Positions 42,705 through 62,396 are shown, counted from the first letter of the stretch. The stretch is DNA of 64,000 nucleotides from a virus (IMGVR_UViG_3300050821_002963:32001-96000); one strand, 5' to 3'. Notes: a model not told the origin generated them from the letters alone. Numbers and translations are program-made.

Positions 42705-43325
42705 ATGATTACGCTGGCGGAGCTAGGGGAGTTGTACTTTGGCGGGCCGGGGTCTGGTTGCAACGGACCTCACTGCGGTCGCCCTCGTACTGCTCAGGGA
42801 AAGGTCCGCCAGCGAGTCAAACGGGGATTAAAAAGATACGCCAAGAAGTTTGATGTGCATCCGGTTCGGAAGGGTAAGCTACAGCCAGGCATACTGAGAA
42901 GAGGCGGCAAGGATATTATTCCAGTTAAGGCTCCGTGGGCTGGCAAAGTAAAAGTCAAGATGAAAGGCGCGAACGGAGAAGACATAGTTGTACTGAAGCA
43001 AGCCAAGACGTATGAGAAGCGTGGCAACGACTGGTTGAGGAAGCCGGACAAGTTCAAAGGTCAGTATCTGGTAGACCTTCCGGCACAGAAGACGTACGAC
43101 GACCCAAAGGAGATAAATCACTTCTTCATTCACCAGGCGTCACCGACGGAAGCAAGGTCGGTAGAGGTTCATAGAAATCTGGGCAAGCTGGGAGTCAACG
43201 TAATCGAAAGAGACTTGGGACAGTACCACGCGATAGAAAGACACAGAGAAATTTCATTCAACAACGTTGGCAGAGCTTCAGGTTTTTTGAATAAGCGGTA
43301 TGGGATAACTTTTCGACTCAAATGA
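42705..43325 (+). CDS. basic protein with N-terminal leader + GGPGSGC motif
   Basis: MITLAELGELYF-GGPGSGCNGPHCGRP; AAGGAAGG SD before ATG 42705. Confidence 0.7.
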   Translation: MITLAELGELYFGGPGSGCNGPHCGRPRTAQGKVRQRVKRGLKRYAKKFDVHPVRKGKLQPGILRRGGKDIIPVKAPWAGKVKVKMKGANGEDIVVLKQAKTYEKRGNDWLRKPDKFKGQYLVDLPAQKTYDDPKEINHFFIHQASPTEARSVEVHRNLGKLGVNVIERDLGQYHAIERHREISFNNVGRASGFLNKRYGITFRLK

Positions 43326-44032
43326 GACTAGCCGCGACATTGGAACTATATGCTGGTGGGGTAGGGTCTGGATGCCGCGGCCCACATTGCGGTCGTCCGC
43401 AGACTATGTATCACGGTACGGTTTTGGATTCAGCTAGAGATATTGTTGCTAAAGGTCTGAAGCCGAATCAAGATAGGCAGTTTGCTGTGGATGCCATTCC
43501 GATGGAGAAAGGATACGTATATGCTACGACGTCTCTCGAGACAGCGATAATGTTTGCGAATTTCCGGGCTGCGTATGAGAAGGCGGCACCAGGAAGCACC
43601 TTCCGTTTTGAGGATAGGTATGGGAATGCGAACATAGCGCATAAAGCTTTTACAGGTCCGGAAGATATGAATTACATGCTGCGGGATAACCCTGAGTTAG
43701 CGAAGGGGGCTTTTACTCCAGCTATCGTGACTTTGAATTTACCGGCAGAGGAAGTAAACAAGATGGAGGGGGATCCGGATTTTGGTACTGATAAAGAACC
43801 GGACGATCCGGACCAAGTAGCTTTTAGAAAGCAGGGAATCTTTCCAGCCAAGTACATAGCTAACGTATTGGTAAGAGGGAAGGATGGAGATTGGCACGGG
43901 TATAGTCCGAAAGAGATTAAGAACTTAAAAGCTAAGGCTTTCAGACAGGTGCACTTTGTGTACTTCGGTCCGGTGGATGAATTGAGAGAACACCTAAGGA
44001 TGGGAGGGCAAGTTGACGATAACGGAAGTTAG
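43322..44032 (+). CDS. ADP-ribosyltransferase-like protein with leader + GGxGSGC motif
   Basis: MRLAATLELYA-GGVGSGCRGPHCGRP then MYHGT..IVAKGLKP..YVYATT..A..FA..IFPAKYI (H-Y-x ART pattern). Confidence 0.72.
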   Translation: MRLAATLELYAGGVGSGCRGPHCGRPQTMYHGTVLDSARDIVAKGLKPNQDRQFAVDAIPMEKGYVYATTSLETAIMFANFRAAYEKAAPGSTFRFEDRYGNANIAHKAFTGPEDMNYMLRDNPELAKGAFTPAIVTLNLPAEEVNKMEGDPDFGTDKEPDDPDQVAFRKQGIFPAKYIANVLVRGKDGDWHGYSPKEIKNLKAKAFRQVHFVYFGPVDELREHLRMGGQVDDNGS

Positions 44033-44085
44033 AAAGTTGTTGACCAAGAAGGAACTGGATACAGTCACGGAGAAGGCCTTCGAAC

Positions 44086-44358
44086 ATGGCTCATTCACGG
44101 TCGAGAACGTCAGGAAAGAAAACGGCAAAAAAGAAGTCAGCATCAGATATCCGGATACAGGAGAAAGAGAAGATGTATCTGTGTAGCGGTGGTTGCGGTT
44201 ACGAGTTTGCGTTGCTAAAGGCTTTGGGCTACAAACCAAAAGGTCAGATGTTCTGCCTAACGTGTACGAAACAGAAAGAACGGGACGAGAAAATCAAGAG
44301 TAGAATCAAGCCACTTGGCAACAGTTGGGTGGAATATCAGATGGGGAGGACAATGTAA
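44086..44358 (+). CDS. small zinc-binding protein
   Basis: CSGGC...CLTC. Confidence 0.45.
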   Translation: MAHSRSRTSGKKTAKKKSASDIRIQEKEKMYLCSGGCGYEFALLKALGYKPKGQMFCLTCTKQKERDEKIKSRIKPLGNSWVEYQMGRTM

Positions 44359-45119
44359 TGCCAGATTTTTCTGGACACAAGTTAGGGAAGTTGGCACCAA
44401 AAACGGATGAGAAACGGCTGAAGCTTGGAAAATATCTCAAGCCAGAATTGGCTGCTCCCCCAGTCGAGCTGAATTGGGGTGACGGTGTTACGGATTGGGG
44501 AATGCTTGGTAATGACACGCTGGGCGATTGTACGATTGCAGGGGTGGGGCATGCGGTACAGTCAGCTATGCATGCGGTTGGGATTGCTTGGGACTCATCT
44601 GTGGAAACAGATGAAGTCATCAAGTACTATGAGTTCTGGTGCGGATACAATCCAGCGGACCCAACGACGGACCAAGGCGGAGTGGAAGTAGATGTCTTGA
44701 ACAACTGGAGGAAGCTTCGTTACGCGGGTCACCAGTTGGTTGCTTATGCAGACCCTGAAATCGCAGATACGTTACATATCAAGCAGTCGATAGCTTTGTT
44801 CGGGGGAGTGTATATTGGTCTGGCTTTACCACTATCGGCTCAGAACCAGGATGTGTGGCAAGTAGTGGGTGATGGTCAGACGGGAGCATCGGCACCGGGA
44901 AGCTGGGGTGGTCATGCGGTGTACGTGGTTGGCTATAGTCCAGAGTTTCTGACTTGCATTACTTGGGGTCAGGAATTGCAAATGTCTTGGGACTTCTTCC
45001 GGGCTTACGCGGATGAAGCACATACTTTGTTTCTGGGGATGTGGGTGGAGAACAAGACGGCTCCTTCGGGGTTCGACTGGGCTCAGTTGGAAACAGACTT
45101 AACAGCGATTGTGGGGTAA
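44358..45119 (+). CDS. papain-like (C1) cysteine peptidase
   Basis: MLGNDTLGDCTIAG catalytic Cys, GGHAVYVVGY His, ITWG. Confidence 0.82.
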   Translation: MPDFSGHKLGKLAPKTDEKRLKLGKYLKPELAAPPVELNWGDGVTDWGMLGNDTLGDCTIAGVGHAVQSAMHAVGIAWDSSVETDEVIKYYEFWCGYNPADPTTDQGGVEVDVLNNWRKLRYAGHQLVAYADPEIADTLHIKQSIALFGGVYIGLALPLSAQNQDVWQVVGDGQTGASAPGSWGGHAVYVVGYSPEFLTCITWGQELQMSWDFFRAYADEAHTLFLGMWVENKTAPSGFDWAQLETDLTAIVG

Positions 45120-45126
45120 AGGAAGA

Positions 45127-45558: not shown

Positions 45559-45560
45559 CG

Positions 45561-46157
45561 ATGAGAGTACTGGAAGCAGCGGCGCTGGTTTCTCTCCGGG
45601 AAAGCTATCAGCCAAGAACCATCGACCAGAAGAAGACTGGGCGAGAGTTGGCTGTGGAACTGTTTGCGGAGGCAGAAGCCAGAGAAGAGCCGTTTATCTA
45701 CCACACGCCGGAGACGTGGAGGCGGAAATGGCTGCCGTCACGGGAATTCCGATTGATGCGGATTCCCTTGAATGCTGCTGCTCTGCCTTGTGAACCGAAG
45801 GGACGGAATCTGGTACTAAAAAAGATTCACGCCCGCGAAGATGGACCAATTCTGGTTGAGTACAACAAGAACAGAATTGGTGGAAGCATCTACGGGTTCA
45901 CGCCGGAAGTGATTGTGATAGACGGGAAGCATAGATACCAGGCAGCGGTACTCCGAGGCGATACGCATATCATGGCATTCGTCGGAGAGCTAGCAGCGGA
46001 AGTAATGGCAGTTGGTAGTGGGGGAGGGGGCCCGGCACCTGAAAGGACGACAGGGGCACCGGGCGCCTCTCTCATAGCAAGGATGAAAAAAGTAAAAGCG
46101 GCTGGTTCGAAACGGCTGAAGGAACTGGACGTAAAGAAAGGTAAGGAGGCGAAGTAG
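45561..46157 (+). CDS. ParB/Srx-like domain protein
   Basis: PILVE...VIDGKHRYQAA.LRG.THIMAFV. Confidence 0.7.
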   Translation: MRVLEAAALVSLRESYQPRTIDQKKTGRELAVELFAEAEAREEPFIYHTPETWRRKWLPSREFRLMRIPLNAAALPCEPKGRNLVLKKIHAREDGPILVEYNKNRIGGSIYGFTPEVIVIDGKHRYQAAVLRGDTHIMAFVGELAAEVMAVGSGGGGPAPERTTGAPGASLIARMKKVKAAGSKRLKELDVKKGKEAK

Positions 46158-46940: not shown

Positions 46941-47528
46941 ATGGACTTGGCAGCTTCTATGGGGTTGCTGGCTAGTCGTGCTAAGGTAAGCGACGGCGAG
47001 CGCCCAATTCTTAAAGGTCATGTCGGTAAGGATGGTTACTTTGAATGTCCTACTGAATTCACGACCAAAGATGAAGTTCGTTGGGCTAAGAATAGAATGC
47101 GCTCAGCGCGCATTGCACAGTATGCCGACGAATCCTGTGGACTGCCAAATACTTATGACAAAGATGGAGCGTATTTATGCGGGGGTAGGGCGGATGGAGG
47201 CAGCGAGCCATGTAACATGTTGGTTGGCTCGGAGTGCCTCATCCGAATAGAGCTATTGCCTACTCCCCATGCCACTAGTTGTATGTGGTGGGAGAAACCA
47301 AACGCAGGAGACCCAGAAGGTCGTCTGTGTCCAAAGGGAAAACTTAGCGATGATAGGTTGGACTATGGGCCGACGAAGAACCCCAAAGGCTTTGGTTGCA
47401 TACGTTGCGAATATGGGCAGGGATTGCTACCGCGACCGGACAGCGAAGGTCGAAAAAGATGGTGTAAGGTAAAGGACCATTCTGTTTCGAACAATTCGTG
47501 TTGCGCTGACAATGACCCGGAAAAATAA
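46941..47528 (+). CDS. Cys-rich protein with MxLAA leader
   Basis: MDLAASMGLLA; many Cys including C..C and CC. Confidence 0.6.
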   Translation: MDLAASMGLLASRAKVSDGERPILKGHVGKDGYFECPTEFTTKDEVRWAKNRMRSARIAQYADESCGLPNTYDKDGAYLCGGRADGGSEPCNMLVGSECLIRIELLPTPHATSCMWWEKPNAGDPEGRLCPKGKLSDDRLDYGPTKNPKGFGCIRCEYGQGLLPRPDSEGRKRWCKVKDHSVSNNSCCADNDPEK

Positions 47529-47543
47529 ACGTGGAGGTTTCTA

Positions 47544-47753: not shown

Positions 47754-47762
47754 GGAGGGCAG

Positions 47763-48909: not shown

Positions 48910-49374
48910 ATGAGCATATTGAAACCAACGCCAGGTGAGCTGATAGACAGGGCAACGATCCTTTCCCTGAAGATAGTGTTCGGACATGTCAAGGGGATGG
49001 ACGTAAGCCATTTTAAGAAAGAAGAAGATGAAGTATGGGAAAGACTCAAAGAAGAAGGGTATGCGGTTATAGAGCAGTTGGACCCACATACGGATTACGC
49101 AGTGTGGGAAGATGAGACCAAGAAGATAATCGCAGAGCTACAGACGGTGAACGGCATCCTCTGGGGACTGGAAGATATGGTCAGGAAGACGGCTAAGCAC
49201 GAGTTCATGGAGTTGGGGAAACTCTGTGTAGGGATTGCGGCTTCCAATGATACGAGGAGTGAACTGATTCAGAAAGCCAACAAGCACTATTTTCTGGAGA
49301 CGAAGCCAGAGAAAGTCTACGACAAACCAAAGAAGAATTTCGTTTCAGATATTGACTTGGGAGATGCTGGGTGA
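48910..49374 (+). CDS. DUF6165-like helical protein
   Basis: GELIDRATILSLK..VNGILWGLED..NDTRSELI..EKVY. Confidence 0.65.
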   Translation: MSILKPTPGELIDRATILSLKIVFGHVKGMDVSHFKKEEDEVWERLKEEGYAVIEQLDPHTDYAVWEDETKKIIAELQTVNGILWGLEDMVRKTAKHEFMELGKLCVGIAASNDTRSELIQKANKHYFLETKPEKVYDKPKKNFVSDIDLGDAG

Positions 49375-49793
49375 TACTGGCTGCGGCAATAGAGTTGTGG
49401 TGTGGTGGGCCGGGTTCTGGATGTCACGGTGAGAACTGTGGCCGCCATAAGGTTGTGGAAGACTTGTTGAAGCATCATGATTCTATTGTCGAGGACCCTA
49501 GACGGATGAACGTTGAGTCGGTCTTTACCGGGAAGCAGAGAGCGGCTTTAGAGTGGCAAGGCAAAGCACTAAAAGGTTTGATGGATGACATTACAGACCG
49601 TGTCGGCCATCCGGATGCAAGGGAATACGTAAGGAAGGCGGCTAGTCGTTTGGATACAGCGGACGAAAAGATGGCTGCGGAACAGTACTCGGCAGCAATG
49701 CTACATCAAGAGGAAGCTTTAATGGATTTGCATGAGGCAATCAGAATCACGGATAGGTATCCATCTTCGATAAGGCAGGTGGCACACGCGTAA
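49371..49793 (+). CDS. helical protein with leader + GGPGSGC motif
   Basis: MILAAAIELWC-GGPGSGCHGENCGRH. Confidence 0.7.
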   Translation: MILAAAIELWCGGPGSGCHGENCGRHKVVEDLLKHHDSIVEDPRRMNVESVFTGKQRAALEWQGKALKGLMDDITDRVGHPDAREYVRKAASRLDTADEKMAAEQYSAAMLHQEEALMDLHEAIRITDRYPSSIRQVAHA

Positions 49794-50104
49794 TGGATAA
49801 GGGATTGGGAGATACGATTAGACGGGTTACGACCAGACTTGGGGTAAGGACTTGTGGTAGCTGTCAGAAAAGGGCGGCGGTACTGAACAGATACTTTCCT
49901 TACTACCACGGTGAGCCGACGAGGACGGTGGAACGGGAAAGTGAGGACGGCAAAGTAAAGCTGGTTCATCTATCCAGTGGGTACCTGGTGGTGGAATACC
50001 CGGAATCATTAACTGGTAACGTTATTCAAGTTCCTTTCCACGAAAGGCATAGAGAGCACGTAGAGAAGTTCTTCGACGCGGTAATCAAAGGAAGAAAAGA
50101 ATGA
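49793..50104 (+). CDS. hypothetical phage protein
   Basis: GLGDTI..CGSCQKR..LNRYFPY. Confidence 0.6.
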   Translation: MDKGLGDTIRRVTTRLGVRTCGSCQKRAAVLNRYFPYYHGEPTRTVERESEDGKVKLVHLSSGYLVVEYPESLTGNVIQVPFHERHREHVEKFFDAVIKGRKE

Positions 50105-51396
50105 AAATCACGGAAAGAAAAACCTGCCGGGCTTGCCAGATGGATTTACCGGAAGAGAATGTGTTGAGTCTAGGCAGCCACGAAGTGGTGGACTTCGTTC
50201 AGTTGCTGGATGAGGGACGGGGACAGGCTCCATTGGACCTGGTCGTTTGTCGGAACAGCCATTGCAACCTTCTTCAGCTCAGGCATACGGTTGACGCCGA
50301 CACGTTGTTCAGGAAATTTTGGTACAGGTCGGGCATCAACGAGCAAATGAAAGTTGCGTTAAAAGATGTTGTGGATTCTGTACAACATTATGTGACGCTA
50401 CAGGGCCACGATGTGGTGGGCGACATCGGGTCGAACGACGGGACTACGTTGGGCTTCTTTGGCAAGGAACTGAGAAGGGTCGGTTTTGAACCAGCGACGG
50501 AGTTGGCGCGAGAGTCACAGAAGCCTGGAACAAAAATAGTCAACGATTATTTTTCGGCCTTCGAAGCGCTGAAAGCTTCTCATGGTAGGAAGTACAAGTG
50601 CCTTTTGGCTTTGGCTATGTTCTATGACTTGGACCATCCGGAACAATTTTTACGGGACGTGGCCCAGGTGTTGCATCCGGAAGGTGTCTTCGTAGTGCAG
50701 ATGAATTACTTGGGGCTGATGCTGAGGAACTTAACGTTCGACAACATCGGGCACGAACATCTTTGCTACTACAGCTTGAGTTCATTGCAACCGCTGTTCT
50801 CCAGAGTCGGGCTTAGAATAGTGGATGTGGAAATCAACGACGTGAACGGAGGCAGCTTCCGGGTCTACGCTAAGCCGGGTCATCATCCAGTCGAGCCTAC
50901 GGTGGCTACGTTGCTGGCAGAAGAAGCAGAAGCGGTAAACCTGGACGCGATACTCAGATTCGGTAAACGGGTGGAACAGACTATAGGAGAGTTGCGGATA
51001 TTCATAGAGAAGTTGAACAAGCAGGGCAAGAAAGTTTACGCGTATGGGGCTTCGACTAGAGGGTCAACGTTGCTACAAGCAATGTTTCCGGATGGTAAGG
51101 CACATGACTATATCGCGGGAGTTGCTGAGAGAGACGAAAGAAAAGTTGGCAGAAGAACGGCTGGCACTTATCTGCCTATTGTTTCGGAACAAGCTGCAAG
51201 GGAAGATGCGGATTTTTTCCTAATTTTGGTTTACCACTTCTGGCACTCCATCAGTCAGAGGGAAAGGTCGTGGATGCTAACGGGTGGTCGGTGCATCATT
51301 CCTTTGCCGAGACCGAAGGTGGTGGCATTGGAGGAAGTAGGGCTTGGTGGGAAGTTCTTTCCAGTGGCAATGGATTTGCCACAGGTAGTAGCGTAG
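50101..51396 (+). CDS. NDP-hexose C3-methyltransferase
   Basis: CRAC..C..C zinc site, DIGSNDG, FDNIGHEHLCYYS, NGGSFR, YGASTRGSTLL. Confidence 0.9.
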   Translation: MKITERKTCRACQMDLPEENVLSLGSHEVVDFVQLLDEGRGQAPLDLVVCRNSHCNLLQLRHTVDADTLFRKFWYRSGINEQMKVALKDVVDSVQHYVTLQGHDVVGDIGSNDGTTLGFFGKELRRVGFEPATELARESQKPGTKIVNDYFSAFEALKASHGRKYKCLLALAMFYDLDHPEQFLRDVAQVLHPEGVFVVQMNYLGLMLRNLTFDNIGHEHLCYYSLSSLQPLFSRVGLRIVDVEINDVNGGSFRVYAKPGHHPVEPTVATLLAEEAEAVNLDAILRFGKRVEQTIGELRIFIEKLNKQGKKVYAYGASTRGSTLLQAMFPDGKAHDYIAGVAERDERKVGRRTAGTYLPIVSEQAAREDADFFLILVYHFWHSISQRERSWMLTGGRCIIPLPRPKVVALEEVGLGGKFFPVAMDLPQVVA

Positions 51397-51405
51397 GAGC
51401 AAAGA

Positions 51406-52398
51406 ATGACGAAAGCAATGGTTATTGGAGCAAACGGTCAGATTGGCAGCTACCTGTGTGAGCTGCTAAAAGAAAAAGGCTATGAGGTGGCTAGGGAGAC
51501 TTCTTTCTCTCTGCCTTTGAGCACGAAGTATCTCAAGCAGGAATTCAGGGCAGAGTTGGCTCGTCATATGCCGGACGAGATTTACAACATGGCGGCAATG
51601 AACTACGCACCAGATTCGTGGAACCTTCCGCTAACGTATGTGCAGGTAAACGGAATGGCACCATTGGTCATGTTGAGTGTCCTGGATGAACCTGGACACA
51701 GGCACATCAAATTTTTTCAGGCTGGTTCGGCGGAAGTGTTCGAGAAGGCTTCGGTTATGCAATCAGAGGATACGAACAGGTTGCCGGAGAATCCATATGG
51801 GTTATCGAAGATGCTGGCTATGGAGGCAGTTAGAATTTATAGAGAACGCGGTCTATTTGCGTGCACTGGAATATTTTTTAACGCGGAATCTCCGAGACGG
51901 AAAGATACTTTCTTTGCTCGGAAGGTAGCGAAGGAAGCGGTGAGGCTGAAGAGAGAGATGGAAGCTACCAGTGAAGAGAGAATGAGACATCCAGTTATGC
52001 CTATCGTTCTTGGCAAGCTGGAAGCGAGAAGAGATTGGGGTTGGGCACCTGAGTATGCGGAAGTGGCATGGAAAATGCTACAACATTCAATACCAATTGA
52101 TTTGGTCATTGGCACGGGTGAGTCGAGGACTTGTAGAGAGTTCGTTTTGGAATGTCTAAAGGCAGCTAAGCTTCCAGATCCAGAAGTGCACTTCGATTAC
52201 TACGTCAAGTATGAGAAAGTAAAAGAGTATACGGCAAGAGATACGATGAGAGCGTGTCCAGAACTAGCGAGGAAGGTGTTGGGATGGCAAGCACAGTACA
52301 AGTTCAGCGACGTAGCGAGGATGTTGGTGGAAGAGGAATCAAGGAAGTCCCAGCCAAGGGAAGAGTCTATAGCTGGATTGACCAGAACTATAGAATGA
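51406..52398 (+). CDS. divergent Gmd/Rmd-like SDR (sugar-nucleotide dehydratase or 4-reductase)
   Basis: GANGQIG, PDEIYN, QAGSAEVF, PYGLSK, FNAESPRR, RDWG. Confidence 0.82.
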   Translation: MTKAMVIGANGQIGSYLCELLKEKGYEVARETSFSLPLSTKYLKQEFRAELARHMPDEIYNMAAMNYAPDSWNLPLTYVQVNGMAPLVMLSVLDEPGHRHIKFFQAGSAEVFEKASVMQSEDTNRLPENPYGLSKMLAMEAVRIYRERGLFACTGIFFNAESPRRKDTFFARKVAKEAVRLKREMEATSEERMRHPVMPIVLGKLEARRDWGWAPEYAEVAWKMLQHSIPIDLVIGTGESRTCREFVLECLKAAKLPDPEVHFDYYVKYEKVKEYTARDTMRACPELARKVLGWQAQYKFSDVARMLVEEESRKSQPREESIAGLTRTIE

Positions 52399-52453
52399 TA
52401 ATGCTGGGTTGTATGCTGGTGGAACTTCTGATGATTGGATGGCTCTGCATAAA

Positions 52454-53642: not shown

Positions 53643-55084
53643 TGGCTAAAGTCCTACTACTCGATAGCCCAAGCTGGCGGTTGTTTAACCCAAAATTGCA
53701 TTGCCATCTTGGTATCCTTTATCTGGCTGGAAGCTTGAGAGAAGCGGGACACGATGTGCGAGTTCTGGATTGTCACAGAGTCACAGGATGGGATGGCGAG
53801 AACCTGATTTTGCATAAGGAGCTGATGGAGCCTTGTGACATTCTTGGTATCTCAGCGACTACTGCCAACGTGAATTGGGGAATTGAAATGGCCAGAGATT
53901 GGCCAGCAAAAGTAAAAGTACTTGGCGGAACGCACGTTACGCATATCATGGAAGGGTCGCACGAGAAGTTCAAGAAGGCAAAGTATTTTCCAGTTTTTGA
54001 CTACTTGTTTGGTGGCGAGTGTGAAGAAATTTTTCCAATTTTTTGCACGCATTGGGAAAAAGGTTGGTTGGATAGCTGGAAGCAAAGATATATCCACGGT
54101 GTTGTGCACAAGTTGGGCGATTCTTTATTTTGGCACGGACCATTCCGAGAACCTGACGTTACTAAATTACCTGGACCGGCGTTCGACTTGTGGGAGGCAG
54201 GTTTTGAAAAAGGAGCCTTGAGCTCGACATCGGCTAAAGGTAAGGAACTAGATGCGAACAGCATGATGACGGCAAGTCTTTACACAGCAAGAGGATGTCC
54301 ATACGGTTGCACGTTCTGTGCGGATGCGAGGACGAAACTTCGTGAAGAGACCTTTGAGCAAATCGAGAAAGAAGCAAAGCAGTTGGCAGAACTTGGGGTA
54401 CAGGCCGTACGGTTACAAGATGATACATTCACCATCAAAGAAGATAGATGCAGAAGAATCTCTGACATCCTGTACAACTACGGATTCAAATGGCGTGCTT
54501 GCACCAGAGTTAACCTTAAGAATGAAAAACTATTTGAGTACATGGCAGAACACGGATGCACAGAACTTGGATTCGGAGTCGAACACGGCTCAGCAAGAAT
54601 GCTAAAGGCGATGAACAAGGGTACAACACCACAAGCTAACGAGTTGGGAATAAAGATGTGTCAGGATGCGGGCATGTTTGCGAGAGCGTTTCTGATGTTG
54701 GGTTTCCCAGGGGAGACTGAGGAATCCATTGAGGAGATGGAAAAATGGATTTTGAAAGTCCGCCCGTCGGCTGTGACACTATCCCTTTTTCAGCCATTTC
54801 CTGGCTCGGATGTTTGGAACCATCCGGAGAAATATGGTGTAGAGATTCCGGACGGGGCTTTCGACAAGTTCTGGCAATTGGGTGGAGACTCAGACCCGGA
54901 CATGATGGTCTTAAGTCTATCGACGATATCGAAGCAGTCTTTATATGCACACAGGCAGCGTCTGATTAAGGTGTTCGAGGCTGAGATTGGAAAGCTGGAC
55001 CGGACGCAGGTGCATGGCAACGTGGGGACATTTGGACCTATGGTAAAAGACGCTGGGTTCAATTCGGATTGTGTGACGGCATGA
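53642..55084 (+). CDS. B12-binding radical SAM enzyme (class B methyltransferase-like)
   Basis: HLGILYLAG..GH.V, VLGGTH, ARGCPYGCTFC, DDTF, GVEHGS, GFPGET. Confidence 0.92.
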   Translation: MAKVLLLDSPSWRLFNPKLHCHLGILYLAGSLREAGHDVRVLDCHRVTGWDGENLILHKELMEPCDILGISATTANVNWGIEMARDWPAKVKVLGGTHVTHIMEGSHEKFKKAKYFPVFDYLFGGECEEIFPIFCTHWEKGWLDSWKQRYIHGVVHKLGDSLFWHGPFREPDVTKLPGPAFDLWEAGFEKGALSSTSAKGKELDANSMMTASLYTARGCPYGCTFCADARTKLREETFEQIEKEAKQLAELGVQAVRLQDDTFTIKEDRCRRISDILYNYGFKWRACTRVNLKNEKLFEYMAEHGCTELGFGVEHGSARMLKAMNKGTTPQANELGIKMCQDAGMFARAFLMLGFPGETEESIEEMEKWILKVRPSAVTLSLFQPFPGSDVWNHPEKYGVEIPDGAFDKFWQLGGDSDPDMMVLSLSTISKQSLYAHRQRLIKVFEAEIGKLDRTQVHGNVGTFGPMVKDAGFNSDCVTA

Positions 55085-55554
55085 GACTACATCCGGCGCC
55101 AGAGTTGAAAGACGTGGACTACCGTTGGTATGCATCTAGATTGGAAGCAATGATAAGGGCTGGTGAGCCTAGTAACTTGTACACTAAGGAAGAAGGTTGG
55201 TTGGAAGAAGCTAAGATTTGCTTCAAGTTTCTGACTACAGTGCCGACGCACGAACTCGGCTTTAAGATTCTCAGATGGAAAGGTCTAAAGAATGAAACTC
55301 GGGATAGTTCTACCCAGCTACCTGTACAACGAGGAAAGGAAGAGATTAGCGGGGAACGCCTTCGTATCCCTAGCGAGAACGGACTCGTTACCGCAGACTT
55401 CCACGTTGCTGCTTCTGGTGAGGCGCGGGACTTCTCAGTCCTACACGGTGCCGATGGAGATGCTGCAAAAGAAATTCCATGTGATACTAAAGACGGACGA
55501 GGGGCTGGAAGGGACGGAACAAACCCTCGCGTTCGGAACTACTTGGTTATTTGA
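55081..55554 (+). CDS. hypothetical protein (3' part overlaps the next gene)
   Basis: ATGA coupling at start; only the first ~70 codons are non-overlapping. Confidence 0.4.
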   Translation: MRLHPAPELKDVDYRWYASRLEAMIRAGEPSNLYTKEEGWLEEAKICFKFLTTVPTHELGFKILRWKGLKNETRDSSTQLPVQRGKEEISGERLRIPSENGLVTADFHVAASGEARDFSVLHGADGDAAKEIPCDTKDGRGAGRDGTNPRVRNYLVI

Positions 55555-55975
55555 GAATAGAGATGTGGACTATGTGACTTGGATGGGAGACGACGCTCTG
55601 TTTAACCCTCTTTGGTTGTGGAGATTGGATGGGTTGATAAAGAGGCATCCGAAGGCGGTGAGTTGGTCGGTGTATCGTTCGGCTTTCGAGTTCGTGCACA
55701 GGACCATACAGGAGACAGAAGAAGATGTAATGGTTCGGTCTATTTGCGGTCATGGGTTGACATTCTCAAAGAAAGAATGGACGGAGTGGGGAATAGATTG
55801 GACAAAGAGAGGTTGGAATTGCCATCAAGGAGATACTTTGGATTTGGTTCACTCGGAGGAAAGGTCGGGTGAGAGATGGGTAACGAAACAGAGTTATGTG
55901 AATCACATGGGCAAAGTCGGCGTACATTGCACTCCGGATATCCCTGAGTACGCGAAAGATTTCCAGCCCGCTTAG
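55292..55975 (+). CDS. GT-A (GT2-like) glycosyltransferase
   Basis: IVLPSY, YVTWMGDDALF, SYVNHMG. Confidence 0.7.
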   Translation: MKLGIVLPSYLYNEERKRLAGNAFVSLARTDSLPQTSTLLLLVRRGTSQSYTVPMEMLQKKFHVILKTDEGLEGTEQTLAFGTTWLFENRDVDYVTWMGDDALFNPLWLWRLDGLIKRHPKAVSWSVYRSAFEFVHRTIQETEEDVMVRSICGHGLTFSKKEWTEWGIDWTKRGWNCHQGDTLDLVHSEERSGERWVTKQSYVNHMGKVGVHCTPDIPEYAKDFQPA

Positions 55976-55989
55976 AAAAAGGAGACTTC

Positions 55990-56241
55990 ATGGGAATTTT
56001 TATCAGTTTTTTGCTACTGCTTTTGAACTTGGTTATCATCGGTGTTTTGTATTGGGGTATAACTGAAATTCTAGCAGTCATACCTTTTATTCCACAGCCA
56101 ATCAAAAATGTACTGCTTACGATTCTTAAAGTGATTGTGGTTATCATCGCCGTAATCTGGGTAGCTAATTGGGTGATGGTAGTGCTGGCTAACGGAGCGG
56201 GCTTCGGTGTGCCAGTATTTATTCCGTACCATAGGCATTGA
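55990..56241 (+). CDS. two-TM membrane protein
   Basis: two long hydrophobic helices around IPQPIK. Confidence 0.65.
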   Translation: MGIFISFLLLLLNLVIIGVLYWGITEILAVIPFIPQPIKNVLLTILKVIVVIIAVIWVANWVMVVLANGAGFGVPVFIPYHRH

Positions 56242-56519
56242 GAACCAAGGATGTGAAAATGATTAGAGGAGAACGAAGAGAAACACTACGGACCACGGAT
56301 AGGAGGACAGTGGTCCGTACTCCAGGCAAGTTGAAAAAGATTTTGGATATTACGTATGCGACTATAAGGAGACAGAACGATGAGAGACGAGAAGGCGATA
56401 GTGGAAAAGAAAGAAGAGATTCTTGAGCTGGTTAGAAAAATGGGGACGGAAGAGGATGGGCACGATTACGTACAATCAGTAGCTATGGCTGGCGCAGAAT
56501 TAGTGGAATTGGAGAAGCA

Positions 56520-57452
56520 ATGAAGGTTGGACTGATATCGAATTGGGATGTGCAGTGTGGCAATGCTGAGTATGGACGGGCTCTTTGTCATGAGCTGAGG
56601 AAAGAGTTTGAGGTAGTGGAACTGCCACCTGATACCGGTCTGGCGCGGAAAGAAATTTCCCTCGACAAGGATATACGGTTGGTTATAATTAACTGGCACG
56701 GTGGAAGGGTCCAAGTCAGAAAAGAAGATACAGGGCAGATGCAGGATAAGGGTGTGAAAGTTATCGTCATTGACCAGAATTGTACTGGAGGTGCTGGGGC
56801 AGTGGGTTTTGGTGCGGATGGTTACGTGGCACATGAGCCGGCAAAAAATATAAGGTACAGTTTCATTCCGCACGGGATTCCAGAAGTGGAGACAAGCAAG
56901 GTCTTGTCCAAAGTGGCAATGGTTGGTACGGCCGGGTTTCCTTTTCCATGGAAGCGATACGATGTGGTGGCGGAGGTAGCAAAGAAGTTCAACATAATGG
57001 CTTTGATGATTGCTCCGAAGTCGGATCAGATGAACACGGATGTGTTTATGGATGGCATCAAAGGTCACATTCCTGGTTTGGCTTTGATTCACAGGGAGTG
57101 GTTACCGACTGCGGAAGTAGTAAGAATGCTTTCGGAATGTGTCTTGAACATCTTTTGGTTCCAGTCTATGGACTCATCGGATGAGTTGGGACAGTCGGGT
57201 TCGGTACGGTTGGGCATAGCAGCGAAGAGGCCAACGATTATCTCGACCCACAGGAAGTTGAAGACACTGTGGAAGTACGACGATGAGTTGTACATCTGTC
57301 CAAAGGAAGAGGATGTGTACAAGGCGGTAGAAGAAATTCTCTTGGCACCACATCTGGCTAAGATACCAGACAAGATTTTGAAAGAGCAGGGTTGGTCGGT
57401 GACAGGGAAGCAGTACAGAGAATTGGTAAAGGAGTTGGATTGCAATTCTTAA
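56520..57452 (+). CDS. GT-B (GT4-like) glycosyltransferase, paralogue of 52454
   Basis: MKVGLISNWDVQCGNAEY, IPHGIP, GFPFPWK, GQSGSVRLGIAAKRP. Confidence 0.8.
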   Translation: MKVGLISNWDVQCGNAEYGRALCHELRKEFEVVELPPDTGLARKEISLDKDIRLVIINWHGGRVQVRKEDTGQMQDKGVKVIVIDQNCTGGAGAVGFGADGYVAHEPAKNIRYSFIPHGIPEVETSKVLSKVAMVGTAGFPFPWKRYDVVAEVAKKFNIMALMIAPKSDQMNTDVFMDGIKGHIPGLALIHREWLPTAEVVRMLSECVLNIFWFQSMDSSDELGQSGSVRLGIAAKRPTIISTHRKLKTLWKYDDELYICPKEEDVYKAVEEILLAPHLAKIPDKILKEQGWSVTGKQYRELVKELDCNS

Positions 57453-58174
57453 CAGCCAACACGCCATTCGGTATGTTCAAGTACGTCTCGACAGACGACA
57501 TTGGACAAAGAATTGCCTCGAACAAGTTCTGGGATGAGCACCTTCGTTCAGCAATGGATAGGGTGGAGCCTGGAAAAGTTATGGTGGACATCGGGGCTAA
57601 CTTGGGATTCTTTGTTGTGTACTTGGCTAGGAAGGGAGTAAAGGTGCATGCCTTCGAGCCGTGCAATGGGGTGTTTGAGATGTTGGCTGACAACGTGGCT
57701 CTGAATGGTGTAGAGGATATGGTTACTCTACACAAGACAGCTCTTTACTCTAGAGAGACGGACTTGCACAAGAATACGGAGTGTGGTTGGACGTATCCTG
57801 CGACAAGTAATGGTGAGTTGGACTTCGAGCGTATAGTTAACTCCGGCCAGCTGTGTCTAAAACCAGGATTTGGCGGAGTCTACGCTATGCAGGGGAAAAC
57901 TTTGGATAGCTACAAGTTGGAGGACGTAGCGTTAATAAAATCGGATGCACAGGGATGTGACCTACAGGCTTTGAGAGGGGCACGGGAAACAATAGATAGA
58001 TGCAAGCCGATACTGTGTTTCGAGTTTGAGAGGATTCCATCTTTGGTGCATGGAGACACAAAAGCTTCTTACGAAGGGTTTGTGGAAGAGATTGGATATA
58101 GGATTGAGATGGCTTTCAATCCGGACCCATGTAGACATGACGACTACTCGGATTACGTGGCGGTGCCTAAATGA
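57440..58174 (+). CDS. FkbM-family methyltransferase
   Basis: VDIGANLG, HAFEP, TLDS..LIKSDAQGCD..LRGA..I..KP; TTG start with AAGGAG SD. Confidence 0.9.
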   Translation: MQFLTANTPFGMFKYVSTDDIGQRIASNKFWDEHLRSAMDRVEPGKVMVDIGANLGFFVVYLARKGVKVHAFEPCNGVFEMLADNVALNGVEDMVTLHKTALYSRETDLHKNTECGWTYPATSNGELDFERIVNSGQLCLKPGFGGVYAMQGKTLDSYKLEDVALIKSDAQGCDLQALRGARETIDRCKPILCFEFERIPSLVHGDTKASYEGFVEEIGYRIEMAFNPDPCRHDDYSDYVAVPK

Positions 58175-58893
58175 TTTTCTCCAGAACGATGAGGCTGGAC
58201 GACTACAACTATTTGACAGAGGAAAGCTTGTTGATGCAGCAGATAGTCAACGCTATCCAGATGTGGTATCCAGCTCAGCATCAGCATAGGAGATGGGAAT
58301 ACGCGCTGGCATTAAAAGCTTTCAAGCAAGTGTTTGGAGAACAGAAAGGTTTAACGGTTACTGACCACGGATGCGGAGCTGGATTCCTTAGTCCAATGAT
58401 GTACTGGTTGGGACAGAACGTTTGGATGTACGAGTGCTGGACGATGGGAAGTGCTGAGCAGTACATGATGGAGCAGATGAGGCGGGTGGGAGTTCACCGT
58501 GGGCAGGATGCTGGAACGTATGAGATGCGGACTAGGCCATTGGGTGAGTTGGTCGAGGCGGATGGTGGGGTCGACGCGGCCTTTTGCATATCGACACTTG
58601 AGCACATTGGAGAGTATCAAAAAGCTTTTCGGGATTTATTGAACACGGTTAAGCCCGGTGGATTGCTTGGGCTTACGACGGATTTCGCAGAGCACGAGTT
58701 GGATGACTATCAATACGCCGGCCTTAGGGCCGGCAAGATGTTTACTGAGAAAACGTATTTGGAATTGGAAGCTATAGGTGAAGAGAATGGATTTGAACTT
58801 TTAGGTGGCGCGGCCGATTGGGGTTGGTCGGAAGAGAATCGTTTGGTTAATAACTATGGCTTTGCAGCTTTATTCATGGTGAGGCATGAATGA
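58171..58893 (+). CDS. class I SAM-dependent methyltransferase
   Basis: RRWEY, DHGCGAG, CISTLEHI, VKPGG..TTDF. Confidence 0.85.
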   Translation: MIFSRTMRLDDYNYLTEESLLMQQIVNAIQMWYPAQHQHRRWEYALALKAFKQVFGEQKGLTVTDHGCGAGFLSPMMYWLGQNVWMYECWTMGSAEQYMMEQMRRVGVHRGQDAGTYEMRTRPLGELVEADGGVDAAFCISTLEHIGEYQKAFRDLLNTVKPGGLLGLTTDFAEHELDDYQYAGLRAGKMFTEKTYLELEAIGEENGFELLGGAADWGWSEENRLVNNYGFAALFMVRHE

Positions 58894-59393
58894 AAGAACG
58901 ATGGAAGCCTGTTTTTGGGGGCATATACGCTGTATCGGATAGAGGTAGAGTTAGAAGGGAAGCTCCAGGAATTAATACTTTCCCTGGAAAGATTTTGAGA
59001 CCTTGCCCAGTTCCAGATTGGTATGTAGTTGGCGTGGCTGTGGTTAATGGAAAAAGAATTTCGTACAACGTCCACGTTTTAGTTGCAGAGGCTTTTCTAG
59101 GACCTAGACCTAGAGGAAAGCAAGTGAATCATAAGGATGGAGATAAACACAATAACGTTTGGAAGAACTTGGAGTACAAGACACCTAAGCAAAACCAACA
59201 GCATTCTTCTAAGCTAGGATTAATAGCGTATGGGGAAAGAAACGGTAACTCCAAGTTGACTGAGAAAAAAGTTGCTGAAATGCGGGAAAAGTTTGCGATA
59301 AGTAAGCCTAGTTACGTTCAGTTAGGTAGACAGTTTGGTGTTACAAAAGAAATGGCAAGTCTGATTATAAGAAGGAAGAATTGGGTTAGATAA
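58890..59393 (+). mobile_element. free-standing NUMOD4-HNH homing endonuclease
   Basis: ERWKPV..YAVSDRGRVR, VHVLVAEAFLG..VNHKDGDKHNN..NLEY, GERNGNSKLT, HTH. Confidence 0.9.
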
Positions 59394-59436
59394 GAACGAA
59401 GGAAAGGAATTCAAATGCGGAACAGACGGAACAAGA

Positions 59437-60489
59437 ATGAAAACGGCTTTGGTTACAGGAGCATTGGGGCAGGACGGTACTTACCTAACAGAACATCTGT
59501 TGGGATTGGGTTACAGAGTAGTTGGTTTAATCAGGAGAACTCCTTGGTCCAGTAAGCAGGCAGTGAACTGGGCGTTGAAGCAAAGTTGGGCAGACAACGT
59601 GGAGTTCGTTTACGGGGATGTGAGAGACGAAGCTTCGCTCAGAAGTGCCATCAAGAAAGCATGGCCGGACGAGATTTACAATCTAGCGGGACAGGTGTAT
59701 GTGCCACTTTCTTGGGAACAAGCGGAACATACGTTCGATGTGAACGTTGGGGGCTTGGCTAGGATTCTGAGAATCGTGGAACAGGTGAAAGCGGATACGA
59801 AAGTCTACCAGGCTTCCAGTTCAGAGATGTATGGGAATCATGCGGGTGAATGTGATGACAAAACAGAGATGTGGCCAGAGTCCCCCTACGGAATCTCGAA
59901 ATTGGCGGCTCATAGATTGGTTGCCTTATACCGTAGTCGGGGTTTGTTCTGTGTTGCTGGAATTTTATTTAATCACGAAAGCCCTCGTCGTGGTCACGAA
60001 ATGGTTACAAGAAAGATTGCTAGGGCAGTAGCAGAGTGGTCTATGGGTTCGGATGAGATTCTTTCTTTGGGCAATATGGACTCGAGAAGGGATTGGGGCT
60101 TCGCTGGAGAATATGTAAAGGCAATGCACAAGATGTTGCAGCAGCCGGAAGCGGATGACTACGTGGTCGGTACGGGCGTATCACATTCGGTGCAGGAGTT
60201 TCTCAGTACGGCTTGTGAAGTGTTGGGAGTTGAGAAGCAGTTTGCAAACGAGCATACAAAGATAGATGAGAGATTTGTCAGGAAGCAAGAGATATTCGAT
60301 ATGAGGGCGGACAACAAAAAGATAAGAGAAAAGCTTGGATGGGAACCTAGAATCTCCTTTCGGCAACTTGTACAATGTATGTGTCAGGCCGAGGTGGATA
60401 AGATAAGGAACAGAGAGCAGTTTGGAGAACTAGAGGAGGCCCAGTCCAATGTCAATGAGCCAGGAGTTGTTCGCGCAGTTAGCGATTGA
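59437..60489 (+). CDS. gmd: GDP-mannose 4,6-dehydratase
   Basis: TGALGQDGTYL, PDEIYNLAGQ, QASSSEMYG, PYGISK, LFNHESPRRG, RDWG. Confidence 0.92.
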   Translation: MKTALVTGALGQDGTYLTEHLLGLGYRVVGLIRRTPWSSKQAVNWALKQSWADNVEFVYGDVRDEASLRSAIKKAWPDEIYNLAGQVYVPLSWEQAEHTFDVNVGGLARILRIVEQVKADTKVYQASSSEMYGNHAGECDDKTEMWPESPYGISKLAAHRLVALYRSRGLFCVAGILFNHESPRRGHEMVTRKIARAVAEWSMGSDEILSLGNMDSRRDWGFAGEYVKAMHKMLQQPEADDYVVGTGVSHSVQEFLSTACEVLGVEKQFANEHTKIDERFVRKQEIFDMRADNKKIREKLGWEPRISFRQLVQCMCQAEVDKIRNREQFGELEEAQSNVNEPGVVRAVSD

Positions 60490-60982
60490 GTACAGGCCAA
60501 AAATTCTTCGTGCGGCATTAAAGATGATGCATCATAAAGAAGATGCAGAAGATGTGGTTCAGATGGCTATGCTGCAAGCTTTCAAGCATAAGGATGACTT
60601 TAGCTATAGGTCTTCCTTTGGTACTTGGTTACATCGCATCATGTTAAATGAGTTGCGGATGTTCTACCGCGCTAGGAAGTGTGGTAGATGGAATGCTTCT
60701 CTGGAGAAGCCAATAGATTTGGTAGAGTACAACAAGTTAGTGGAGGATGAGAACCTTAGACCGGATATCTTATTCGCGAACAAAGCTATCCGGTTGGCTT
60801 TCGAAGATGCTTTGGATAGGCTCCCACCGTCTCAGAAAGATGTGGCTTTGCTAAGATTCGGTTTGGGTATGACATTGAAAGAGATGGCACAGAATCTGAA
60901 CAAGACGGAAGTGGCTGTGAAGGCTGCTTTGCACGTTGCAAGAGCCAAGCTAAAAGTACAGTTGGTGGGAGTCGAGACATGA
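60449..60982 (+). CDS. ECF-type RNA polymerase sigma factor
   Basis: DAEDVVQ..F..SSFGTWLHRI..N (region 2); LDRLPP.Q..LR..G...EMA...VKAALH.AR (region 4). Confidence 0.88.
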   Translation: MSMSQELFAQLAIEYRPKILRAALKMMHHKEDAEDVVQMAMLQAFKHKDDFSYRSSFGTWLHRIMLNELRMFYRARKCGRWNASLEKPIDLVEYNKLVEDENLRPDILFANKAIRLAFEDALDRLPPSQKDVALLRFGLGMTLKEMAQNLNKTEVAVKAALHVARAKLKVQLVGVET

Positions 60983-61413
60983 ATATAGAAACTTTAATCA
61001 GGAACATGAAGGCTTACGGTACACCAGAAGGGGTCAAGTTGGCGTGGGAAAGTAGACCACGAGCTCTGGGTAGGCCTAGACCACAGCTACTTGAGTCCAG
61101 GTACCTGTCTTTGGAATTAAGGAACTCACCCCTTCCGCACGTGTTTGAGAACTCGGACAAGACGAGTTGGCACTGGTCTTCGGACAAATCTAATCTAGTG
61201 GTGGAGACGGTGGAAGAGCCAAACACAGAAGACAGACCAAACGCCTTGGGTATGGAAATCAAAACGACGTACACTATTCCAGTAAGGAATATTACCTATT
61301 GGGGGCCGGAGCAGGAGTCTCCGATCTACTTAAAAAGAAAAGGCATGGAACCATCCAGCCAATACAAGACGGGATTCATGATGGGGATGAAAGGCAAGAA
61401 GAGGGTCAATTGA
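60979..61413 (+). CDS. hypothetical protein, possible leader-bearing head protein
   Basis: MNIETLIRNMKA-YGTPEGVKLAWESR. Confidence 0.55.
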   Translation: MNIETLIRNMKAYGTPEGVKLAWESRPRALGRPRPQLLESRYLSLELRNSPLPHVFENSDKTSWHWSSDKSNLVVETVEEPNTEDRPNALGMEIKTTYTIPVRNITYWGPEQESPIYLKRKGMEPSSQYKTGFMMGMKGKKRVN

Positions 61414-62396
61414 ATCTGGCTAATGCAATCAAGCTGAAGAGTCTGGACGGAGCGGCGGCCGGAACACAGGCTACGGTCCCAGACTCTCGTTCGGCGGACG
61501 ACTGGATTAAGAAGTTCCTGGACGACAAGAATAAGCGGTTGAATGCTCTGCGCAGAGAATTGAATCATCTTATCGGCCCTGAGAAGGGGGAATGGCACGC
61601 AGCGGTCAGAGAAGACAAGAAGTCAGCCTTTCCTCAGTCTCCTGGAAAAACGGCACAAGGTGGACGGTGGGCTGTAGTATCACCAGAAGATGAAATCATT
61701 TCCACTTGGCCCAGCAAAGAAGAAGCGTATCGAGCCGCGTTTCCCTATTGGCGAGGATTACTTCCCTCAGCAACGGGGCCAACTGGTGGGGCGAGAGTTA
61801 AAAGAGTTCGGGATGTGAGGGCTGGTGGGCCAGGTAGTGGGTGTCAGGGTGAGAACTGTGGAAGACCAAAAACTGTTAGTGAGGTTTTCCCACTAGAGCT
61901 CAGCAAGACTCTTATGGATGATGATTTGCGTGAGAGGTCTTTCGACGCTCAGTCAAAGTCGTCTGGAATGCGGCAGACGATTGACATTAACAAGTTAGTG
62001 GCTACGCAAGATAAGTTGTATCCTGAGGTGCTTGAGCAATACTATAGGACAGGAGCTATCAAAGATGCTCAGGGCGAGCTTCCAGTTTTGATAAAGGATG
62101 GAGAGAAGTACTACATTGAGGATGGGCATCATCGTATGGTTGCACAGAAGTTGATTGGTTTAAAAAAGGTGCGAGCTTTGGTGTACGATGCTTCACCAAA
62201 AGAAGTTCAGGCGGCAGACATCTTTGAAGACCCTGACCACGGAGACAGAACGAGGGCTAAATTTCTAAAGCACGCGAAACCTAAAGTCGTACAGGATGCG
62301 GACCAACTAAGAATGGCGGACAAAAGGCCCAGCTCACATGGGCAAGGAGCTGCTGGCACGGGTGGTGCGGCAGGACCGAGTGGGGGAGGAACGTAG
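61410..62396 (+). CDS. multi-segment protein: leader, internal GGPGSGC motif, ParB/Srx-like domain
   Basis: TTG start MNLANAIKLKS; VRA-GGPGSGCQGENCGRP; IDINKLVATQ..PVLIK..YYIEDGHHR. Confidence 0.72.
   Translation: MNLANAIKLKSLDGAAAGTQATVPDSRSADDWIKKFLDDKNKRLNALRRELNHLIGPEKGEWHAAVREDKKSAFPQSPGKTAQGGRWAVVSPEDEIISTWPSKEEAYRAAFPYWRGLLPSATGPTGGARVKRVRDVRAGGPGSGCQGENCGRPKTVSEVFPLELSKTLMDDDLRERSFDAQSKSSGMRQTIDINKLVATQDKLYPEVLEQYYRTGAIKDAQGELPVLIKDGEKYYIEDGHHRMVAQKLIGLKKVRALVYDASPKEVQAADIFEDPDHGDRTRAKFLKHAKPKVVQDADQLRMADKRPSSHGQGAAGTGGAAGPSGGGT

Follow-up and report, generated by a model that had tools for sequence, protein, structure and literature searches.

The stretch of DNA analysed here (the window, 64,000 nucleotides) comprises bases 32001-96000 of IMGVR_UViG_3300050821_002963, a single-contig virus record of 131,524 bp with a CheckV completeness of 82%, nearly all of whose genes lie on the + strand. 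Our subject is a pair of short peptides carried by several proteins of this genome, a glycine- and cysteine-containing motif (the hinge) and an N-terminal stretch of 11 residues (the leader), which together may address otherwise unrelated proteins to the interior of the phage head. A Pfam scan of the window shows genes for replication and nucleotide metabolism, repeat proteins resembling tail fibres, a sugar/methylation cluster and an extracytoplasmic function (ECF)-type sigma factor. When it was searched with a degenerate DNA pattern for GGxGSGCxGxxCGR, four matches were obtained, all on the + strand, against a chance expectation of 0.00 from 100 dinucleotide shuffles of the window. A six-frame scan of the whole genome found GG[PV]GSGCxGxxCGR at these four sites and none elsewhere. 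The copies, each supported by the pattern scan, the six-frame scan and a motif alignment, are:

42741..42785, + strand, hinge copy 1, GGPGSGCNGPHCGRP
43355..43399, + strand, hinge copy 2, GGVGSGCRGPHCGRP
49404..49448, + strand, hinge copy 3, GGPGSGCHGENCGRH
61824..61868, + strand, hinge copy 4, internal, GGPGSGCQGENCGRP

At the DNA level the four copies have a mean column identity of 72%, and their Gly, Pro, Cys and Ser codons vary (for Ser, TCT versus AGT). Since the codons have diverged, selection acts on the peptide, as a first-pass annotation of this DNA had proposed. Ahead of GG, copies 1 to 4 have F, A, C and A, respectively. Three of them follow an N-terminal peptide of 11-12 residues, and the fourth is internal to a two-domain protein. 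The four genes, and a fifth with a loosely similar start, are:

42705..43325, + strand, P1, 206 residues: a 12-residue leader MITLAELGELYF, the hinge, and a body ending FNNVGRASGFLNKRYGITFRLK (open reading frame, ORF, with ribosome-binding site)
43322..44032, + strand, P2, 236 residues: an 11-residue leader MRLAATLELYA, the hinge, and a body with a predicted ADP-ribosyltransferase (ART) fold (leader model, AlphaFold, Foldseek)
46941..47528, + strand, a Cys-rich protein of 195 residues with a weak leader-like start, MDLAASMGLLA, whose membership in the tagged set is uncertain (loose pattern match)
49371..49793, + strand, P3, 140 residues: an 11-residue leader (GTG start, then ILAAAIELWC), the hinge, and a helical body (leader model, tagged relatives)
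61410..62396, + strand, P4, 328 residues, two-domain: behind a weak leader-like start (TTG, then NLANAIKLKS), the N-terminal domain is separated by the internal hinge from a C-terminal ParB-like region that contains DGHHR

The start of P1 is preceded by AAGGAAGG, those of P2 and P3 each overlap the stop codon of the upstream gene, and that of P4 likewise overlaps an upstream stop codon, with AAGAGGG ahead of it. Each of P1, P2 and P3 has a single body; P4 has two. In BLASTP comparisons the bodies behind the tags were mutually unrelated; the single pair with E < 0.2, two genes outside the window described below (genome positions 5535 and 97976), had in common only the short motif GT[AS]EGAxKGWDxRGRGR. 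The pattern scan, the shuffles, the six-frame scan and BLASTP thus agree with the starting observation of the first-pass annotation, that four genes with unrelated bodies share one Cys motif.

The bodies themselves are known to different degrees. That of P1 has no match in Pfam, PHROG or NCBIfam, and a Protein Atlas look-up with P1 gave scores of 0.78, under the noise level. P1 has tblastn matches in two related genomes, G005 and G004, and its conserved C-terminal end recurs in tagged ORFs of five further loci (L006, L007, L011, L019 and L020; sequences read by eye). For P2, the AlphaFold model has a predicted local distance difference test (pLDDT) score of 67.6, the body being confident and residues 1-20 near 50. 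Every PDB match that Foldseek listed was an ART-fold protein, with weak scores: the best was pertussis toxin S1 (E 7.9e-4, TM 0.39/0.48), and TreX (TM 0.60 by target) and Tpt1 were also found. The P2 body opens with YHGT right behind the hinge, and Y30-H31-x-T33, which is invariant across 12 family members, may be the beginning of an ART catalytic signature (H-Y-E or R-S-E). Pfam ART-PolyVal matched P2 relatives only under the family cut-off, and a word-index homologue search with P2 returned P2 alone. On the model and the structure matches, the proposed ADP-ribosyltransferase cargo holds at fold level. The P3 body belongs to no recognisable family in Pfam, PHROG and NCBIfam scans, and has tagged family members in P0055, P0061, P0099, P0129 and P0139. 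The ParB/Srx-like domain once assigned to P4 fared worse: its C-terminal part matches ParB profiles only below threshold (TIGR00180, 20.3 bits with a cut-off of 58.45; ParBc_2, E 0.054; ParB_N, E 0.15), and the DGHHR motif was seen by eye. In locus L038, an InPase domain and a hinge are followed by a region with LDGHHR, read by eye as ParB-like. A second window protein with a ParB/Srx-like motif by eye (DGKHRY) and a Gly-rich tail lies at 45561-46157 (+ strand); it has no leader, hinge or family match. The Cys-rich protein at 46941 has no family match either.

We then considered the leader in its own right. An initial pattern scan of the source genome gave about ten genes with a similar start, a list chosen by eye; for that reason the leader model was rebuilt from 86 outside proteins only. 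With this model we scanned 4,094 candidate starts of the source genome at a cut-off of 8 bits. Six starts reached it, all at real gene starts and on the coding strand. Among 20 codon-shuffled genomes that served as control, 18 had no hit at or above 8 bits and two had one hit each. The six leader genes are, in genome coordinates:

97976, 26.3 bits, leader followed by a PI3/4-kinase-like protein, without the Cys motif
75322 (P2), 24.4 bits, with hinge
96675, 22.6 bits, leader followed by InPase (PF18823, E 2.4e-35), without the Cys motif
81371 (P3), 14.6 bits, with hinge
96050, 13.5 bits, leader followed by a small protein, without the Cys motif
5535, 11.0 bits, leader followed by a small protein, directly after the adaptor gene, without the Cys motif

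The earlier report of a leader in three of the hinge genes is therefore upheld for P2 and P3, while the 12-residue leader of P1 is out of register with the model. The further suggestion that the same leader begins the genes at 61410 and 46941 did not stand, both being under 8 bits, but orthologues of P4 do have leader-like starts (9.0 bits in G005; P0037 begins MKLADTIKL). In four of the six model-passing genes the Cys motif is absent, and GG follows the leader in only two. Leader and hinge had been taken for a single tag; these four genes, and the internal copies of the hinge described next, show them to be separable.

To follow the motif beyond the source genome, IMG/VR was scanned with the DNA pattern, which gave 40 loci and, from these, 28 non-redundant motif ORFs of at least 100 residues that were annotated with Pfam. 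Two of the 28 were portal proteins (PF06381) with the motif in a C-terminal extension, and seven carried the XkdF prohead protease (PF14550), joined by the motif to other domains. Cargo among the 28 comprised zeta toxin (five), InPase (one) and an intein followed by zeta toxin (one), with no Pfam hit in 15. A 38-column profile built from 31 motif segments was then run against 1.84 billion protein cluster representatives and found 490 clusters at E <= 1e-3, 56 of them at <= 1e-10. The counts of leaders, positions and domains given below come from the best 149 of these 490 proteins. In 106 the Cys motif lies inside the first 20 residues, and in 86 it is preceded by a leader of exactly 11 residues; in addition there are 119 internal copies, with up to eight in one chain (P0004). 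In small proteins, then, the hinge sits directly behind the leader, and in large proteins it separates domains. Large hinge proteins had a Pfam hit in 27 of 47 cases (NUDIX 9, ART-type 7, zeta toxin 6, Mu_F 4, InPase 2), their further domains including portal, Top1B, SprT, ATLF-like peptidase, S-adenosylmethionine (SAM) lyase, PI3/4-kinase and GNAT. Small tagged proteins had one in 17 of 102 (GNAT 5, ART-PolyVal 3, PI3/4-kinase 2, ATLF 2, and one each of zeta toxin, RelA_SpoT, Fic and Tpt1). P0039 and P0043 are built as portal, MuF, hinge, ART or SAM lyase, and hinge, and P0039 ends in a zeta-toxin domain. The IMG/VR scan and the profile search together found diverse cargo and, in other phages, fusions to portal, MuF and the XkdF prohead protease, as had been anticipated for a tag connected with the head. 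These results support the idea of a modular tag on unrelated, effector-type cargo.

The hinge consensus is GGPGSG-CxGxNC-GR[PK], with 10 of 15 positions invariant in 31 sequences. Such conservation would be expected if the motif were part of one folded domain present in all four window proteins; alternatively, a Cys after Ser-Gly about 19 residues from the start resembles the GSGC lipobox of a Sec/lipoprotein signal. We give either explanation a probability close to negligible. The bodies are unrelated and the tag region has low pLDDT next to a confident body, which speaks against a shared domain, the case that the first-pass annotation had named as refuting its idea. The motif, moreover, is found both at N-termini and within chains, a single chain having up to eight copies. 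As to a signal, no basic n-region is seen in the leader, which falls short of the length of a signal peptide and in many cases contains Glu. Among the invariant residues of the hinge the only potential ligands are the two Cys, His being variable; the four ligands in one motif that define a zinc knuckle or ribbon are not found. With two invariant Cys in each motif, half a tetrahedral site, the leaders and the two-Cys loops could tie the effectors together by forming helix bundles and a common Zn(Cys)4 or disulphide clasp, and so rebuild a polyvalent complex non-covalently, of which one member or none contacts the capsid. Several copies per genome (four here), and up to eight per chain, would suit such an assembly tag. 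Copy numbers are often odd (P0006 and P0007, for example, have three copies of the Cys form, and G002 has seven); moreover, variants free of Cys occupy the same place, and metal binding is itself an inference. We regard this explanation as rather unlikely.

The variants that occur behind a leader or a domain, in the place of the usual hinge, are GGPGSGCNPxVGxCGR (C-x6-C), the Cys-free GGPGSGRHPxGG, and GWDTRGRGR. A third short module, GT[AS]EG[AV]xKGWD[TA]RGRGR, was seen in genome genes 97976 and 5535 and in G002 at 116175 and 99864: it stands directly behind the leader in the kinase-like protein and recurs inside the leader protein of the head module. Basic and Arg-Gly rich, it looks like another interchangeable hinge.

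The consensus of the 86 leaders is MNLATTIELYA. Conservation along it, as the number of sequences out of 86, is M 83, N 63, L 79, T 52, I/L/V 81, L/I/V/M 85, Y/H/F 64 and A/G 72, and the leader-hinge junction reads [LIVM]-[YHF]-[AG] ahead of GG. Glu is present at -4 in 32 of the 86 and is not among the commonest residues at -1. Upstream of the internal copies, an aliphatic residue stands at -3 in 107 of 119, and Ala or Lys at -1 in 109 (A 69, K 40), so that the only upstream feature common to N-terminal and internal hinges is [ILVM]-x-[A/K] ahead of GG. These figures bear on the possibility that the tag is structural only, a generic hinge of polyvalent proteins together with a short helix left at the N-terminus after gene splitting, which serves folding, solubility or translation initiation. 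The excess of internal over N-terminal copies (119 versus 86) and the interchangeability of Cys and non-Cys forms speak for a mere linker. So does the second codon: 80 of the 86 leaders have Asn, Lys or Arg there, and translation initiation is favoured by A-rich codons at this position. A linker would not explain why eight of 11 positions are conserved in the N-terminal leader and only two upstream of internal copies, nor why the leader is found without any hinge on InPase, the kinase and two small proteins. We consider a purely structural role unlikely.

The GG of the hinge raises a further alternative. Bacteriocin and RiPP (ribosomally synthesised and post-translationally modified peptide) double-glycine leaders are amphipathic helices that end in GG, with hydrophobic residues at -4 and -7, and are cut by C39 peptidases. 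The leader here is similarly a short amphipathic helix, hydrophobic at -4, -7 and -11 and then followed by GG, and could be cut after GG by a cysteine peptidase for export or activation, as in class II bacteriocins and RiPPs. A candidate for such an enzyme lies directly after P1 and P2 at window 44325-45119 (+ strand), a protein of 264 residues with papain-like Cys and His motifs by eye (LGDCTIAG ... GGHAVYVVGY ... ITWG). It matches phrog_19005 (E 5.7e-36), has 26 IMG/VR relatives, and has no Pfam, NCBIfam or PDB sequence match. The presence of a B12-radical-SAM gene in the window also speaks for this alternative. No C39 peptidase or ABC exporter was found in Pfam scans of 97 and 44 ORFs, and four of the six model-passing leaders have no GG behind them. 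The peptidase family is present in only one of five motif-bearing records, and at none of 26 IMG/VR loci is the motif within 10 kb. The cargo, furthermore, consists of enzymes of 76 to about 390 residues or more, and the motif also occurs inside portal fusions. A leader of the double-glycine type is accordingly very unlikely. The papain-like protein was rejected as a dedicated protease of the tag, as it does not co-occur with it, its family profile being found only in G000 and G005.

For a tag that may direct proteins to the capsid, the head genes are relevant. They occupy genome positions 103 to about 10,000, which are not part of the window, and form a head module in the order portal (PF04860), a 506-residue protein, a 328-residue probable major capsid protein, and a head-tail adaptor. 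With the terminase gene at 113835-115613, portal, terminase and tail genes are all present. No MuF was found in the 131,524-bp genome, and gene 5535, directly after the adaptor gene, is the only leader gene of the source genome within the head module. The 506-residue product of the gene next after portal (genome 2142-3662) was studied by structure model and structure search and is referred to here as the protease-scaffold. Its model, made with three orthologues, has a mean pLDDT of 49.6 and reaches 60-85 over residues 34-168 only. In a search independent of Foldseek, the top match of residues 31-169 was the T4 prohead protease gp21 (5jbl_A; Z 10.7, root mean square deviation 3.7, 127 residues), followed by the proteases of varicella-zoster virus (Z 7.7) and human cytomegalovirus (HCMV; Z 6.1). 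The protease domain is followed by long helices, then by an acidic region and a short helical C-terminus, a scaffold-like arrangement. His61 and Ser138, invariant in the four orthologues, are the putative catalytic pair. From the modelled structure, the genome thus appears to encode a fusion of a scaffold with a prohead protease that has the fold of T4 gp21, and in G001-G003 and G005, too, this gene is the neighbour of the capsid gene. Co-folding of the protease-scaffold with the capsid protein and P3 gave a score of 0.00, obtained without controls, which speaks neither for nor against binding. In G005, the closest relative (locus L092, 4252-6392), the match to the protease-scaffold gene is broken into two parts with about 600 bp between them, the first ORF ending early, which may reflect an insertion or intron-like element.

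Leaders or hinges were found in the related genomes G001, G002, G003 and G005 (complete), G004 (partial) and G006. The complete relatives have one shared head module, with 65-84% identity in the capsid protein. Starts of at least 8 bits numbered five in G005, nine in G002, three in G003, one in G001 and three in G004. In G001, four hinge-bearing genes stand between portal and the protease-scaffold gene, and in G002 nine leader genes follow one another almost in a row. Leader or hinge genes were located no more than about 2.5 kb downstream of the capsid gene in six of 20 loci of this capsid-protein lineage. Genome G010 (84% complete), which has a hinge, an intein, a zeta toxin and, by reading, MuF-like motifs, does not have this capsid protein; the hinge is therefore wider than the capsid lineage. 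In a scan of prokaryote genomes, which returned at least 120 loci, L199 was by reading the sole true leader with hinge among the matches listed, the others listed being chance hits in G+C-rich DNA.

We see about an even chance that, in this phage lineage, the two-part N-terminal module labels effector-type proteins encoded as solo genes for loading into the capsid interior, by analogy with the capsid targeting sequence (CTS) of T4. The leader, an amphipathic peptide M-N-L-x-x-T-I-x-L-Y-A, would act like the CTS and bind the assembling prohead core, here the fused gp21-fold protease-scaffold, and whatever is attached behind it would be carried into the head. The hinge would be a flexible, exposed separator and, given [ILVM]-x-[A/K] ahead of GG, may also mark a processing site. 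Its two-Cys loop might clasp a metal ion or form a disulphide; as there are only two ligands per loop, a shared metal site or a disulphide is suggested. Once packaged, the cargo, which includes the ART-fold enzyme, InPase, the kinase and the ParB-like domain, would be ejected together with the DNA and have the host as its target. The hinge is the same separator that is found in large polyvalent virion proteins of other phages, where it joins cargo to portal, MuF and XkdF. As one and the same hinge is used both within chains and at the beginning of genes, it seems that a single arsenal is bundled and unbundled by phages.

Several observations weigh against capsid loading by this route. The residue before GG is not uniform and fits a single cleavage rule poorly, being mostly Ala or Lys in the internal copies, while portal and XkdF fusions of other lineages have D, E, M, L or F there. 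Nor does the junction have the Glu expected of gp21-type enzymes, the Glu of the leader lying at -4 and in a minority of sequences. In L013 and L037 the hinge is found in front of the Pfam-matched part of XkdF and, by reading, seems to lie in an insertion inside the protease domain, where cutting would split the enzyme. The Cys-free and C-x6-C variants in the same place imply that the Cys loop is dispensable for the role of the hinge core. The tagged genes are scattered across the window, and those of P3 and P4 are found next to or inside the sugar-modification cluster (50101-60489) and not in the company of structural genes. Every near-complete genome that has the leader is of a single capsid lineage, so that the leader may be a trait of the clade. 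Finally, tblastn of P1 and of the capsid protein against cultured phages gave no match and the terminase matched only at <=25% identity, so there appears to be no cultured relative, and the tagged proteins are known from genes and models alone.

In a stronger form, which we think unlikely, the 27-residue MNLxxTIxLYA-GGPGSG-CxGxNC-GRP would be a portable plug that loads any protein into the capsids of a large clade of uncultured phages of about 120-130 kb: the leader would dock on the gp21-fold protease-scaffold, and the two-Cys loops would pair through metal or disulphide, tether the cargo and release it in the reducing cytoplasm of the host. Several hundred tagged clusters, most without a known domain, would then amount to a catalogue of injected anti-host or anti-defence effectors. 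Even if the tag is simply a capsid address, injected proteins of uncultured phages would become recognisable from their sequence, as 490 clusters carry it, and the 85 of 102 small tagged proteins without a Pfam domain would form a focused list of candidate host-takeover or counter-defence effectors. The tag also connects giant polyvalent proteins with sets of small solo genes, and a defined short loading peptide for an HK97-type capsid could, like the CTS, be used with laboratory strains to package foreign proteins into phage heads.

Other genes of the genome were noted in passing. The modification cluster at window 50101-60489 (+ strand) contains a C-methyltransferase, two genes of the GDP-mannose 4,6-dehydratase family, the B12-binding radical SAM gene, several methyltransferases and probable glycosyltransferases, and is interrupted by an HNH/NUMOD4 endonuclease gene (58890-59393). 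A family A DNA polymerase (PolA) is encoded in two ORFs on the + strand: the first (7517-9397) combines uracil-DNA glycosylase (UDG) and exonuclease with the N-terminal part of PolA, the second (9963-10868) has the C-terminal part, and between them lies an ORF of 188 residues (9406-9972, + strand) with no family match. At 21607-22845 (+ strand) there is a member of the adenylosuccinate synthetase family (PF00709, E 1.4e-41), which we presume might be a PurZ-type enzyme for 2-aminoadenine DNA; QueC-, QueD- and QueE-like genes and a DUF5591 gene are located outside the window. Two proteins of 691 and 824 residues at 37059-42011 (+ strand) have degenerate repeats of the form ...SDS..(L/V)GYG..., match only phrog_12240, of unknown function, and are likely to be proteins of fibres or of the surface. 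Homologues of PspA/IM30 (PF04012, E 1.6e-12) and GrpE (PF01025, E 3.2e-10) and a weak Cpn10 match were also found, at window 24083-24769 (+ strand) and at genome positions 126666-127895 and 113229-113831.

The leader and hinge described here seem not to have been described before. A full-text literature search by motif strings found no phage paper among the matches listed, a search by subject gave nothing relevant, NCBIfam has no model for the tag, and the matched passages of PMC5512222 and PMC5576092 make no mention of either peptide. The nearest precedents are the CTS of T4, polyvalent proteins and MuF/portal fusions.

Two more distant systems resemble it in part. Encapsulin cargo-loading peptides combine a short hydrophobic-patterned peptide with a flexible Gly-rich linker, are usually C-terminal, and load unrelated enzymes into a shell of the HK97 fold. 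By analogy, the leader and hinge could work in the same way, the differences being that the tag is N-terminal and of another sequence, and that the shell is the capsid of a tailed phage with portal and terminase. The assemblin-fold proteases of herpesviruses follow the cleavage rule (V/L/I)-X-A|S. The aliphatic residue at -3 and Ala at -1 upstream of hinges are reminiscent of this rule, and the phage protease is predicted to have the same fold, whereas Lys occupies -1 in 40 of the 119 internal copies and other residues do so in other lineages. Double-glycine leaders, discussed above, have in common with the leader the amphipathic helix, the hydrophobic positions and the GG end, and differ in peptidase, exporter and cargo.

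The relation to polyvalent proteins is closer. According to Iyer et al. (2017; PMC5512222), such proteins carry two to fifteen effector-type domains per polypeptide, their repertoire occurs in phages and conjugative elements, and solo versions of the domains are found among late phage genes. The cargo of the tag has the domain repertoire of polyvalent and MuF-portal effectors (PMC5512222 and PMC5576092), with ART, NUDIX, InPase, zeta toxin, GNAT, MPTase-like peptidase, RelA/SpoT and ParB-like domains. The proteins of the window differ in being solo or two-domain, with a leader in place of the covalent anchor: P1-P3 are not multi-domain, as the hinge relatives P0004 and P0039 are, and association with portal or MuF was seen in other phages and in G001; in the source genome, in which no MuF was found, gene 5535 is the one tagged gene within the head module.

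The comparison with T4 is the most direct. In T4 the CTS of the internal proteins IPI-III is read by the scaffolding core. According to PMC9026906 and PMC3012670, the first ten residues of IPIII are enough to bring it into the core and gp21 cleaves them off, and the CTS is the only thing that the otherwise diverse internal proteins have in common; T4 gp21-type and phiKZ proteases cut after Glu (PMC9026906). The leader has no resemblance to the CTS in sequence by eye, and the junction here is [ILVM]-x-A before GG where T4 has L/I-x-E. An extra Gly-Cys hinge, which T4 lacks, is present, the protease is fused to the scaffold, and the tag is known from genes alone. In other respects the two systems agree: as in T4, an N-terminal peptide of about 10-11 residues is found on otherwise unrelated proteins of one phage (six starts here versus at most one per shuffled genome), the cargo would be directed at the host, and the genome is predicted to encode a prohead protease of the gp21 fold together with a scaffold.

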